Both the position numbers and the translations under genes were made by a program. The notes beneath the pieces are model-generated. The model had not been told where the DNA came from and made no database searches. It saw nothing but the letters and a program-made list of their open reading frames with translations. This document shows, piece by piece, positions 3,630 through 13,999 of a stretch of 30,857 nt of DNA (within the stretch, counting starts at the first letter, position 1; every line of letters starts with the position of its first letter). The stretch is from a virus (Duplodnaviria; Caudoviricetes). Where the stretch lies: positions 1 through 30,857 of IMG/VR virus record IMGVR_UViG_3300011334_000236. One strand, 5' to 3'.

Positions 3630-4931
3630 TTAACCTACAACATACTGTCCATAACTTGGATTAAGTTCGAAATACATTCGCATCATGATTGCGTCGGCAA
3701 CGTCAGGTGAAATACCTTCGCGGTTCTTGATTACGTCCTTCGGTGTAACCATAAGTTTTCCTTCCACGTCCGCGCGGTGTCGCTTAATCATTTCTAACTC
3801 TTTCACGATTTGTTCCTTGCGTCCGTTCACTAAAATAGTGAGCTTATTTTCCTCAACATATTGAGCCAATTTATAGTAACACTCGCTTTTGAGATTTTGG
3901 TATTGTGGTTGTTTGGGTTTAGATCCATTGACGAACCCCCGACATTTAAGAAAATCAACCACTCCACCACCAACACCGTCTTCATCTGCGACCACATCCT
4001 GTAACAAAATTGAGTGTTCTTTTGTTACGAGGCGAATCTTGTTCACGACCTCATCTAACGACGCTCTGCTCAACTCAATTATGTCAATGATAGTTAACCC
4101 GTGCCAAACGCAGATAATTGTTCTATCCTTTCCAAAACGCGCGATGTCAGCGGTGATATATTTCTTTCCTTCAATTAATTCATTGCGGAACATACGCAGT
4201 AGGTTATCGGTTGAGAACAACTTGTCGGAGTCGTCGTCAAACTCCCAGTTCCCTTCTAAAAGTCTTTTGCGGTCATACTCTGGAAGTTTCTGTAAGTTTT
4301 CAAGATAAGTCTGCGAGATATACGGGTTGTCCGTTGGAAGTGCTTGCACAAAGGCGCGGTCACTTCTTAAATTTCCTTTTTGGTGAGCAAAATAAAAGTC
4401 ATTATACAACCACCCCTTTGAAGGGTTACAAGTCATTAATCCCTTTGCTCTGTCATTAATCAATTTGTAACGTACACGCGACTGCAATATATCGATACAA
4501 CGCTTCGAAACTTCGGCTACCTCGTCAACGAAGTAGTCTGTGATTTCAATCGACCCAAATCTCTGAAAATCGGGATCTGAGGGCATATCTGCCAAATCCA
4601 TAAGTATCGTTTGGCTTCCGTTATACCACTTAATAACGTGGTCTTGTCCATTGTAGGTATAATGAACGTTCGGTTTTAGTCCGTGAAGCGTACAAAGTTC
4701 GAAGAAAGTTTGCATTGTAGATAAGCGTAACTTCTTTAATTCAGCACGACCGATTAAACCCTTCGTGCCAGGGTACTTCAACCGTCTTTTTATTTGCCAG
4801 TCGCAACCTAAAAAAGATTTTCCGCTGAATACACCGCCACCATAAAGAACCTGCGAAATAGGACTTTCATACGAAAGAAGTTCTAACGCTTGCTTTTGTT
4901 TGTCGTGGTAAATTATTTCACGTGCTTCCAT
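3630..4931 (-). CDS. terL: Terminase large subunit (with replacement N-terminus)
   Basis: Walker A GGVFSGKS, Walker B YFVDE, coupling motif TCNP, nuclease motifs ADIARFGKD and SPDVADA. Confidence 0.93.
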   Translation of the reverse strand: MEAREIIYHDKQKQALELLSYESPISQVLYGGGVFSGKSFLGCDWQIKRRLKYPGTKGLIGRAELKKLRLSTMQTFFELCTLHGLKPNVHYTYNGQDHVIKWYNGSQTILMDLADMPSDPDFQRFGSIEITDYFVDEVAEVSKRCIDILQSRVRYKLINDRAKGLMTCNPSKGWLYNDFYFAHQKGNLRSDRAFVQALPTDNPYISQTYLENLQKLPEYDRKRLLEGNWEFDDDSDKLFSTDNLLRMFRNELIEGKKYITADIARFGKDRTIICVWHGLTIIDIIELSRASLDEVVNKIRLVTKEHSILLQDVVADEDGVGGGVVDFLKCRGFVNGSKPKQPQYQNLKSECYYKLAQYVEENKLTILVNGRKEQIVKELEMIKRHRADVEGKLMVTPKDVIKNREGISPDVADAIMMRMYFELNPSYGQYVVG

Positions 4932-6005: not shown

Positions 6006-6757
6006 TGCTTTGACAAATAAAGTTTGTAAAGTTCTCTCATTCCTTCGAACCGTATTGATTCCTTCAACAACATTCTTTTGCGGTCGCTCATTCGGTCAAC
6101 CATTGACTGAACCAACTGTTGTTCGAAGTAGATGTTCTTCTTTGCGTTCGCTTTACAAAGGCGATATTCTTCTTCGGTGAAGGTGTCAGCGTTTATCTGT
6201 TTGCTTTCTTCGAGCCAACGCATAAGCGACACCGCACGAATCTCAATGACCGTGTACTTTCCTTTCTTAAAATTGTGCAAATCTTCCGCAAGCATCCTTC
6301 TCCAGCTGTCATCGTTTACCGCCATTTCGCTCTCCTTTAATTGTTTAGATTGTTCTTCTTTTGATTCCGCTATTTCTCTCTGAATTTGCAAGTTTGCCTT
6401 GTCGCGGTGTGGTTTGTAGTGCGTTAACACATCACCAATAAAAGACACACTCAACGCACCGAAGTGTTCGCATTTCTTTGACAGTTCATTCGCTGCGTTC
6501 AATTCGAAGGCGAGGTTGAAGTGTTCAAACGTAACCCACCGAAAGTTTTTGCCTATGAACTCGTGCAACATTTGAAGTAACTGCGCTTCTGGAAGGGCAA
6601 TACCATACATGGCGCACACCTTCGAGCAAAGTTTTACAAATGCAGGGAGTTCGTAGTCGGCAACAAATGCGCTTTCGCGCTCTGCACGATCAACCCTTTG
6701 TGTAATTGTGAGCGTCGTTGTAGATGCGTTGCGCAGCATCGGAGTCGAATTTTCCAT
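6002..6757 (-). CDS. Putative helicase-loader-like replication protein
   Basis: 251 aa helical protein directly after an initiator-like gene (lambda O-P-like order). Function inferred from position. Confidence 0.4.
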   Translation of the reverse strand: MENSTPMLRNASTTTLTITQRVDRAERESAFVADYELPAFVKLCSKVCAMYGIALPEAQLLQMLHEFIGKNFRWVTFEHFNLAFELNAANELSKKCEHFGALSVSFIGDVLTHYKPHRDKANLQIQREIAESKEEQSKQLKESEMAVNDDSWRRMLAEDLHNFKKGKYTVIEIRAVSLMRWLEESKQINADTFTEEEYRLCKANAKKNIYFEQQLVQSMVDRMSDRKRMLLKESIRFEGMRELYKLYLSKQ

Positions 6758-7337: not shown

Positions 7338-7871
7338 TTATTTGATTTTAGATTTTCTTTTTGCGCTGAGTGTCTTTTGATGTTCAACGTGTTCGACAAA
7401 TTTAGTAAAAAAAGTCATAGGTTTAGCATAACCCATCTCATTTAGTATAAAACAAATGCGTTCAACGTTGCCTCGGTAGTATTTGTCCCACTCAACCTGA
7501 GCAGACGCTTGTTTGATTCCGTGCAGAATAGTAGCGTGGTCTTTCTTGTAACGGTCACCTACGTTTTGAAGCGAGAGAACGTAACAGGGACGAATGATAA
7601 AAAAAATGATTTGTCGTGCGTTTACTATCTCACGCTTCCTTGTCGGTGTGTATAGCGCTTGCGAAGGTACTCCCAAGACCGAACACGTTACATCTTCCAG
7701 AGCCGACCAAAACATATCTCGTTCGTTTTCCATTTGTTTCTGCATTTCTATTTGCTCACTCGTTAGACGTTCGTAGCGTGGTGTAATCATCGTCCACAAT
7801 AACTCGAAGCGTTCCATGTGTCTAAATGGTATCATGTCAAGCACTTCATTTCTTATCTGTTCGTTAGTCAT
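7338..7871 (-). CDS. DnaA C-terminal (domain IV) HTH-containing protein
   Basis: TRKREIVNARQI...SLQNVGDRYKKDHATILHG matches the DnaA domain IV signature (RDHTTVxH). No AAA+ domain. Confidence 0.85.
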   Translation of the reverse strand: MTNEQIRNEVLDMIPFRHMERFELLWTMITPRYERLTSEQIEMQKQMENERDMFWSALEDVTCSVLGVPSQALYTPTRKREIVNARQIIFFIIRPCYVLSLQNVGDRYKKDHATILHGIKQASAQVEWDKYYRGNVERICFILNEMGYAKPMTFFTKFVEHVEHQKTLSAKRKSKIK

Positions 7872-8103
7872 TTTCTTCGTTGATTAGTTTGGTAGGTGTA
7901 AAGGTGCTAAATACTTCTTCGCGTGACAACCCTGTGTGTAAACAAATGTTGTTGAAGTCTTTGATTCTCATTCGCTCTGGGTGTGTGACGTAAAGACGTG
8001 CCGTTGGATCGCTGATTCTCAAAGCTGCTTTAAATTTCGTCAGCGTCTTGAAGTTAATCTTGACTAAGCGACCGAATGGTGTTGAATACATTTGCTTGTT
8101 CAT
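7864..8103 (-). CDS. Putative HTH (Cro/XRE-like) protein
   Basis: TLTKFKAALRISDPTARLYVTHPERMRIKD resembles an XRE-type HTH. Confidence 0.5.
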   Translation of the reverse strand: MNKQMYSTPFGRLVKINFKTLTKFKAALRISDPTARLYVTHPERMRIKDFNNICLHTGLSREEVFSTFTPTKLINEEND

Positions 8104-12254: not shown

Positions 12255-12860
12255 ATGAAGACACAAACTGTTCCAATAAACGAAGTAAAGTCCAACCCTA
12301 ATAATCCACGAATAATTAAGGACGATAAATTCAAGAAACTTGTTGCTTCAATAAAAGAACTTCCACAAATGTTGGAGCTACGTCCAATAGTCGTGAATGA
12401 AGATATGGTTGTTCTTGGTGGTAACATGAGATTGAAAGCGTGTAAGGAAGCAGGACTAAAAGAAATACCAATTATCAAAGCATCTGAATTGAATGAAGAA
12501 CAACAACGCGCTTTTATCATTAAAGATAACGTTGGTTTTGGTGAATGGGACTGGGACGCGTTAGCCAACGAATGGGACGCGGAACAATTAGAAGAATGGG
12601 GTTTAGACGTTTGGAAAGGACAAGACGTAGATTTAGATTCTTTAAGTGATGAATTTAGTTTGCCAGAAGGTGATAAAGCACCATTTCAACAAATGACTTT
12701 TACTCTTGCAGACGAACAAGCAACGCAAATAAAAAACGCAATAGCAGATATAAAGCAAACAGAAGAATATAAGTATTGCGAAACAATGGGAAATGAAAAT
12801 TCAAATGGCAACGCACTTTATTTAATAGTAATGCAATGGGCAGAGCAAAAGAGATCATAG
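12255..12860 (+). CDS. ParB/Srx N-terminal domain protein (DNA-modification associated)
   Basis: NPNNPRII, LRPIVVNEDMVVLGGNMRLKAC, IIKDNVGFGEWD. Confidence 0.9.
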   Translation: MKTQTVPINEVKSNPNNPRIIKDDKFKKLVASIKELPQMLELRPIVVNEDMVVLGGNMRLKACKEAGLKEIPIIKASELNEEQQRAFIIKDNVGFGEWDWDALANEWDAEQLEEWGLDVWKGQDVDLDSLSDEFSLPEGDKAPFQQMTFTLADEQATQIKNAIADIKQTEEYKYCETMGNENSNGNALYLIVMQWAEQKRS

Positions 12861-13609
12861 TAAAAGTTATACCTGCAAAAATTGCAAATGAATTTGTAAA
12901 AAAACATCATTATAGCGGCAAAATTGTAAACAATAGTTCTTTACACTTTGGTTGTTTTTTAGATAACAATTTACACGGTGTAATGAGTTACGGCAGCCCT
13001 TTTGATAAAAGCAGAGTTCTTGGAATGGTTCAACCTTGTTTGTGGAATGAAATGCTTGAACTTAACCGTATGGCTTTTGATGATTACTTGCCTAAAAATA
13101 GCGAAAGCAGATGCCTTGCAATAAGTATTAAACTAATCAAAAAAAATGCGCCGCATATTAAATGGCTTCTTTCTTTTAGCGACGGAACACAAAGTGGTGA
13201 CGGAACTATTTATAGGGCAAGTGGTTTTTATTTAACATCAGTAAAACCTAATTCAAGTATAATTGAATTGCCAAACGGAAAGAGAGTTGCAAGTATGACT
13301 TTTACAAAAGGCAAACACATATTATCACAAAATGGCAGAGCAGGTGTTCCAGAAGGAAGTAAGAAAGTTGCAGGGTTTCAACTTCGTTATATTTACTTAA
13401 TAGACAAATCTTGTCAAATTACCGTTCCAATTTTACCATTTAGCAAAATAGACGAAATGGGAGCAGGAATGTATAAGGGCAAAAAAATAACCCTGCAAGA
13501 ACGCAAGGTTATCAATTTGAGCGAAGTGGTCGAATCGAACGCCGACTCTGTTCTGGAAGAACAGCATGTTGCCACTACACTAACTCCGCGTAGTAAAAGT
13601 AAAAAATAA
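12836..13609 (+). CDS. mom: Mom-family adenine modification (GNAT-fold) enzyme
   Basis: FVKKHHYSG, ELNRM...PKNSESR, LLSFSDGTQ.GDGTIYRASGF are Mom-family motifs. Confidence 0.85.
   Translation: MGRAKEIIVKVIPAKIANEFVKKHHYSGKIVNNSSLHFGCFLDNNLHGVMSYGSPFDKSRVLGMVQPCLWNEMLELNRMAFDDYLPKNSESRCLAISIKLIKKNAPHIKWLLSFSDGTQSGDGTIYRASGFYLTSVKPNSSIIELPNGKRVASMTFTKGKHILSQNGRAGVPEGSKKVAGFQLRYIYLIDKSCQITVPILPFSKIDEMGAGMYKGKKITLQERKVINLSEVVESNADSVLEEQHVATTLTPRSKSKK
13520..13589 (-). tRNA. tRNA-Gly(TCC)-like gene with a one-nucleotide T-stem deletion; CCA not encoded
   Basis: GCGGAGU UA GUGU AGUGGCA ACAU G CUGUU CU-UCC-AG AACAG AGUC GGCG UUCGAUU CGACC ACUUCGC U folds as a cloverleaf. Confidence 0.85.
13594..13601 (-). 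promoter_or_regulatory. -7-like box TACTTTTA, 4 nt upstream of tRNA G1
   Basis: TAnnTTTA variant. No clear -33 element. Confidence 0.4.
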
Positions 13610-13639
13610 ACGTGAGAGAATCGTGAAAAATTATTAACA

Positions 13640-13999
13640 ATGGCAAACGAACAAAACCTTAAACCCTTTCCAAAAGGAAACAACGCAAACCCCAACGGAC
13701 GACCGAAAAAATACGTTTCGTTGTTGAAGGAAAGCGGCTACAAGTTGAGCGAAATAAACGATACTATTCAAGTAATGATGGCTATGGATATGGACGAACT
13801 CAAAAGCGTTTGGGACAATTCAAAAGCAACGATACTTGAAAAGACAATCGCAAACGCCATGATGACCTCGTTGAAAAAAGGCAATTTGTATTCTCTCGAA
13901 ACATTATTGAGCCGTGCGTTTGGTAATCCAAAACAAATGACCGAACTTACAGGCGCAAACAGCGAACCGATACAAATCATAATCAATGACAAATTATAA
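13640..13999 (+). CDS. terS: Terminase small subunit (putative)
   Basis: MANEQNLKPFPKGNNANPNGRPK N-terminus, LLSRAFGNPKQ, ELTGANSEPIQI tail. Confidence 0.75.
   Translation: MANEQNLKPFPKGNNANPNGRPKKYVSLLKESGYKLSEINDTIQVMMAMDMDELKSVWDNSKATILEKTIANAMMTSLKKGNLYSLETLLSRAFGNPKQMTELTGANSEPIQIIINDKL

Follow-up and report, generated by a model that had tools for sequence, protein, structure and literature searches.

A bulged tRNA-Gly-like RNA encoded beside phage mom genes, a candidate glycyl donor for DNA modification

The Mom protein of phage Mu takes glycine from Gly-tRNA-Gly and transfers it to the N6 of adenine, where the adduct rearranges to 6-NcmdA on double-stranded DNA (PMC13219725, accessible text). 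The same text describes R151 as essential and Mom as thought to read the acceptor end of the tRNA. It also reports that all three E. coli isoacceptors work with Mu Mom, so that a private donor is not chemically needed (PMC13219725). Work on staphylococcal tRNA-Gly, in the part of the article accessible to us, gives the GlyRS identity set as it is kept in the RNAs described below. It further states that the grip of EF-Tu on the tRNA body is set by the first three T-stem pairs, glycine adding little, and that EF-Tu inhibits the glycyl transferase FmhB by sequestering its Gly-tRNA donor (PMC7826273). U73, in turn, protects Gly-tRNA-Gly from DTD (PMC6097841, accessible text). An earlier, sequence-only reading of the phage locus studied here had leaned on two of these points. 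Its statement that Mom uses Gly-tRNA-Gly as donor is correct for Mu Mom (PMC13219725), and the bases that it took for the bacterial GlyRS identity set match the published one (PMC7826273).

The mom gene and an antisense tRNA-like gene

The window, i.e. the whole stretch of DNA analysed here, is a virus record of 30,857 nt, with genes for terminase, portal and lysozyme among its content. The promoter motif, together with the genome bins in which close relatives of its Mom occur, leads us to infer a host among the Bacteroidota. The features that matter for what follows are these:

12255..12860, plus strand: ParB-N-domain protein (PF02195); overlaps the start of mom and is its usual upstream neighbour
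12836..13609, plus strand: mom, 257 aa (PF25680, E 8.4e-50); homolog of the GNAT-fold DNA adenine glycyltransferase
13520..13589, minus strand: tRNA-Gly-like RNA gene, from G1 (13589) to U73 (13520); found by ARAGORN, RF00005 and model R1
13528..13543, minus strand: T-arm; its stem has 4 bp (GGCG/CG-A-CC), and the A that bulges out is 13530, separated by two pairs from the acceptor-stem junction
13555..13557, minus strand: UCC anticodon; its loop has 7 nt and U33, and C35 and C36 belong to the GlyRS identity set
13601-13594, minus strand: -7-like promoter box TACTTTTA, 4 nt before G1; the last G of TAnnTTTG is mismatched
13608-13601, minus strand: second box with one mismatch, 11 nt before G1
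13640..13999, plus strand: DUF5681 protein (PF18932), likely the small terminase from its position in relatives; served as a control marker

The identification of the overlapping reading frame as mom is borne out by the profile match (169.7 bits to PF25680, curated cut-off 27.1). The protein also matches the structure of Mu Mom (PDB 8bv8, E 1.8e-19), and in that alignment the Mu residues H58, Y59, R111, S124, D149 and Y159 are all present. Of 191 Mom sequences linked to the RNA, nearly all have the catalytic R111 and S124 as well as the other four. The position of R151 is occupied by Thr in the window. Since R151 is conserved neither in RNA-linked Moms nor in most RNA-less homologs, it appears to be a feature of Mu and not of the family. 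No residue separating RNA-linked from RNA-less Moms was seen at the 12 positions checked. The tail of the mom reading frame varies freely in length among relatives, for which reason a function for this C-terminal extension was rejected; its overlap with the RNA gene looks incidental.

The RNA is the sole tRNA-like element of the window, as had been claimed: over the whole sequence ARAGORN finds one tRNA only, a tRNA-Gly(TCC) at 13519-13589 (minus strand). It forms a 70-nt cloverleaf antisense to the last codons of mom (13589-13520, minus strand) and lies wholly within the last 30 codons of that frame. With RF00005, the only Rfam family matching at the site, it scores 40.7 bits (E 1.8e-05; gathering 29), one base of the T-stem being gapped; our model R1 gives 79 bits. 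All the bases named earlier are there: G1-C72, C2-G71, G3-C70, U73, the UCC anticodon, GG in the D-loop and the T-loop UUCGAUU. The window RNA thus has the cloverleaf and the GlyRS identity set (G1-C72, C2-G71, U73, C35, C36), and in place of the unbroken 5-bp T-stem and 12-bp acceptor branch of a canonical tRNA-Gly it has 4 bp and a bulge. U73 is followed by C, A and A, so that CCA is not encoded in this copy. Folded alone, the RNA strand is no stabler than its shuffles (z -1.03), and its minimum-energy fold differs from the cloverleaf T-arm. Single-strand thermodynamic folding being uninformative here, the structure rests on covariation.

Putative expression signals are found upstream of G1. 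TAnnTTTG is the -7 consensus of Bacteroidota. The box proposed 4 nt before G1 exists at that spacing, with one mismatch to this consensus; the site in the window holds no perfect TAnnTTTG box, and the closest relatives have one at the identical 4-nt spacing. More generally, such a box lies 4-12 nt upstream in 44/51 antisense copies, against 1.6% of random 30-nt windows. Related sequence occurs in two metatranscriptomes, as assembled contigs only. One of them, a 185-nt contig of a relative (run X2), spans 13455-13638; it tells neither strand nor ends nor level and may stem from carried-over DNA, and we count it neither for nor against expression.

Some observations concern the neighbourhood. 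Relatives of the ParB-N protein with more than ~175 aligned residues nearly always precede mom and shorter matches do not. The large terminase gene (3630-4931, minus strand), with an adjoining HNH/NUMOD4 gene, is ~9 kb away from the likely small terminase gene (13640-13999). A weak Rfam match to GEBRO at 6391-6561 (23 bits, gathering 284.7) is probably due to chance.

Co-occurrence of the RNA with mom

For the 80 best of the 584 relatives of Mom that were confirmed in viral contigs (identity 65-92%), the structure parser placed the element at most 190 nt from the Mom C-terminal motif in 80/80, as in the window. The RNA is antisense in 52 of these 81 Mom-picked loci and sense in 29. Controls picked by neighbouring genes ask whether the RNA follows mom or the packaging module. 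Among the 80 loci listed for DUF5681 (small terminase), it is present in 10/10 with mom and in 0/70 without, one of the latter having a weak 20-bit match elsewhere. Among the 80 listed for the ParB-like protein, the corresponding values are 59/62 and 0/18; of the three exceptions two are cut by contig ends, and one (L302) lacks the RNA. Taken together, the loci listed in the two sets give 69/72 with mom against 0/88 in mom-less sister loci, counts that are not all independent events because the two sets were not deduplicated against each other; in 3 of the 88, the flank that matters is short. These controls led us to reject a tie to the packaging module instead of to mom. The sequence-only reading had predicted that a scan of mom flanks would turn up tRNA-Gly with T-stem defects, and the RNA does track mom tightly.

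The association is also recovered in reverse. A scan of viral contigs with the T-arm motif, made without reference to Mom, has a Mom gene in 117 of the 119 loci listed according to a local profile whose seeds included nine of these loci, Pfam-confirmed as Mom. Many of the 119 belong to a second Mom clade, ~30% identical to the Mom of the window. With a second motif describing a 5-bp stem plus bulge, 110/120 of the viral matches listed adjoin Mom (69/70 of those with long flanks). The metagenome scan is less clean, with 95/120 of the matches listed beside Mom; of the other 25, inspection by eye puts 18 down to chance matching in GC-rich DNA.

The RNA is not a fixed companion of Mom. In bacterial genomes it lies beside 29/45 Mom loci and is missing beside 16/45, and in 1,200 newly drawn genomes it accompanies 1/15 Mom loci above the Pfam cut-off, some of which end near contig edges. 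None was found beside the Mom of the cultured phages Mu, TCUEAP3, PX29, Melnitz-1 and Q69. As Mu-type and other distant Moms lack it, the RNA must be optional for the family. Two copies are orphans (L455:1201 and L581:1155-1224), mom being absent from the 1200 nt to either side of them, and that of L581 sits just ahead of a terminase-like module.

Copies occur in a cultured phage as well. Psychrobacter phage Y8A has two in tandem, D-armless and ending in CCA (L245:3162-3300; OQ059336.1, ~7786-7924), which directly follow an unannotated, ParB-linked mom. Its second, annotated Mom gene (ORF69; L676:1394-2158) lies elsewhere with no RNA match beside it. Such RNA genes are easily overlooked: ARAGORN with default settings called a tRNA in 46/80 of the Mom-picked loci, and the Y8A paper reports, in its accessible text, no tRNA despite the two copies (PMC10434257).

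Conserved structure and drifting ribosomal features

In 61 aligned copies, 99.2% of cells are paired and 18/20 pairs, spread over all four helices, show compensatory change. Related sequences can beat pairing shuffles without any structure, but slid controls fall to 37-56%. Pairing in the T-stem reaches 98.8% when the A is left bulged and 60.3% when the stem is read canonically, and a canonical register with mismatches was therefore rejected. G1-C72, C2-G71, C36, U73 and the bulged A are invariant in these copies, and C35 is nearly so. Figures for the family come from 123 distinct copies in protein-picked loci, with a parser that demands G1, C2 and CC in the loop; this set was preferred because a looser parser admitted a few false cloverleaves and motif-picked loci are biased towards bulges. 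The T-stem has 4 bp plus bulge in 93 of the 123, 5 bp plus bulge in 25, and is plain in five, all of them clostridial; the bulged base is A in 117/123. Hence, what stays invariant in the family is the bulged A, set two pairs away from the acceptor junction; lack of base 51 is no more than its common form. The lesion described earlier in the T-stem holds as regards the bulge, not as regards an obligatory loss of base 51. A sequencing error, named at the time as what could undo the idea, is rejected as the cause of the missing base, the 4-bp-plus-bulge stem being shared by 93/123 distinct relatives. The first two T-stem pairs are both G-C in the window and mostly so in the family (99/123). The tRNA-Gly genes of five host MAGs have canonical T-stems only.

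These patterns bear on whether the element might be a tRNA in decay or what is left of an integration site. Integration often takes place at tRNA-Gly genes, and the promoter box of the window is imperfect, as decay would have it. Yet, the cloverleaf of the copies is complete and each of its four helices shows compensatory change, the identical lesion recurs across deep Mom clades, and a scan of 44 ORFs of the window showed no integrase. Covariation thus largely refutes this reading, to which we give almost no credence, and the view that the lesion was selected rather than decayed has stood up. Judging from the alignments, the bulged T-stem and the identity bases are under selection.

Features that matter for the ribosome have instead drifted. 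The anticodon loop has 8 nt in 51 of the 123 copies and 6 nt in 7, and the form with 7 nt and U33 is found in only 33. U8 is kept in 83/123 and the T-loop TTC in 84/123; the GG of the D-loop is also lost across the family, and some lineages have lost the D-arm. This drift speaks to another explanation, that of an ordinary phage tRNA-Gly which tops up GGA translation or refills a pool cut by anticodon nucleases of the host. The window copy is canonical except in its T-stem, and a 4-bp T-stem can serve in translation if combined with an 8-bp acceptor stem (PMC5389517, accessible text). GGA makes up 181/481 of the Gly codons of the window, and 33% in mom-bearing against 27% in mom-less sister loci, a difference so small that a codon-usage supplement was rejected. 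Moreover, the RNA is absent from 88/88 mom-less sister loci among those listed, most copies have no 7-nt loop with U33 and some no D-arm. The acceptor stem having only 7 bp, the branch amounts to 11 bp plus bulge and not to the 12-bp 8/4 form. We regard a role in translation as very improbable.

The layout of the locus varies. The RNA is sense at the mom 3' end in 72 of the 123 copies and antisense at the 3' end in 51, and a 5' sense layout exists in another, distant Mom clade, where the RNA directly precedes the mom start on the same strand (L447, L462, L467, L472, L474, L475, L483, L486, L494, L679). Strand and position vary even between near-identical Moms. In a quick tree of 161 Mom proteins, unrooted and with uncertain long branches, the RNA spans several deep clades. 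Such variation in strand and side with respect to mom makes action in trans likely. One might still think of a cis element, be it an RNase P/Z cutting signal, a terminator or an antisense regulator of the mom message: in 91/123 copies the reading frame of mom ends within the element or past it, so that cutting or antisense pairing would touch that message. But no single role of this kind fits the 3' sense, 3' antisense and 5' sense layouts, and none needs C35, C36 or U73. A cis function is very improbable in our view, and regulation of the mom message may be a side effect.

Other arrangements are seen in a few loci. Six clostridial ones (L229, L230, L232, L234, L237, L240) have two tandem mom paralogs followed by one or two RNAs, several of which have 6-nt anticodon loops and unbulged T-stems. 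Elsewhere a second, highly divergent Mom-like gene with its own long tree branch lies directly upstream of the usual mom (L225:2233, L296:3034, L305:1144).

A putative glycyl donor and its described relatives

The RNA gene is real, structurally conserved and co-occurs with mom. We think that it probably encodes Mom's own private glycyl donor. The RNA would be transcribed from its own promoter when antisense, or released from the mom message in sense copies, and then matured and given its CCA by host enzymes. Host GlyRS would charge it with glycine, and U73 would guard the charged RNA from DTD. The bulge, placed at the T-stem contact, would weaken binding to EF-Tu, keeping the RNA from EF-Tu and the ribosome and leaving a free charged pool; our literature search found no paper measuring the effect of such a bulge on EF-Tu. 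Mom would preferentially use this RNA, passing its glycine on to adenine of the phage DNA. Recognition by Mom may be a further role of the bulge, or its role in place of the first.

The main rival is that the RNA mimics a tRNA so as to bind and restrain Mom, an antitoxin-like brake and no donor. In Mu, where Mom harms the host and is kept under tight control, the regulator Com is annotated beside mom. The strict link with mom, the trans-acting layout and a conserved bulge serving as binding handle would all suit a brake, which shares most of the genomic evidence with the donor reading. Yet, C35 and C36 lie far from the acceptor end and persist while their loop changes greatly in size, a pattern that speaks for GlyRS. 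Proteobacterial copies and most firmicute ones encode CCA and Bacteroidota-type ones do not, matching the host tRNA-Gly genes seen. A brake explains the kept C35 and C36 less well than a donor does, and we consider it unlikely.

If the RNA is indeed a private donor, a DNA-modifying enzyme would bring its own RNA co-substrate, a possible answer to the competition between Mom and EF-Tu for Gly-tRNA late in infection. The T-stem bulge would then be a natural device for holding charged tRNAs outside translation, useful for orthogonal aminoacyl donors. Phage Y8A, being cultured, makes the donor idea directly testable. A broader picture, on which we are evenly divided, is that of a widespread two-part anti-restriction system made of Mom and a family of tRNA-derived cofactor RNAs. 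Their bulged A would both exclude EF-Tu and be read by Mom, opening a translation-independent channel of glycine to DNA, and some lineages would have pared them down to D-armless mini-tRNAs.

How does this compare with known systems? Mu Mom (PF25680, 8bv8) belongs to the same family, keeps the same six residues and has Gly-tRNA-Gly as published donor. In contrast to the window, Mu has no such RNA adjoining its mom; its Mom uses host tRNAs and requires the arginine that is Thr here (R151; PMC13219725, accessible text). The cassette order ParB-like protein, mom, RNA, small terminase also sets the window apart from Mu. Canonical bacterial tRNA-Gly (RF00005) shares with the window RNA the cloverleaf, the acceptor identity set, U73, a 4-nt variable loop and a score above gathering. 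It differs from the mom-linked RNA by the latter's bulged T-stem and by the drift of the family in U33, loop size, D-loop GG, T-loop TTC and D-arm. Allo-tRNAs and 8/4 tRNAs, found in bacteria and phages, likewise have irregular 4-bp T-stems, some of them bulged, and some are charged yet unused in translation (PMC5389517). But they have a 12-bp branch (8/4 or 9/3) with the bulge at 51a on the 5' strand, and are of Ser, His, Cys or Sec type, with no Mom link reported in the accessible text (PMC5389517). The mom-linked RNAs do not form such a branch; they combine a 7-bp acceptor stem with 4 or 5 bp and a bulge on the 3' strand.

In the literature searched, mostly outside subscription journals, we found no description of a mom-linked tRNA; the family tied to phage Mom is real, conserved and apparently undescribed. 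Closest in proposed role are the non-proteinogenic tRNA-Gly NP1-3 of S. aureus. Their GlyRS identity bases are kept, their T and D arms are altered, and they are proposed to be glycyl donors for a GNAT-fold transferase outside the ribosome (PMC7826273, accessible text). They differ in that their T-stem is a regular one of 5 bp with weak A49-U65, U50-A64 and A51-U63 pairs, and in being chromosomal, restricted to staphylococci and devoted to cell-wall synthesis (PMC7826273). The mom-linked RNAs have G-C pairs in these first positions (99/123) and the bulged A as their device, are phage-borne, and likely have DNA as acceptor. By this comparison they would work like the staphylococcal RNAs without being members of that group, the weak-pair signature being absent. 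If so, dedicated non-ribosomal tRNAs would extend from staphylococcal cell-wall synthesis to phage counter-defence.
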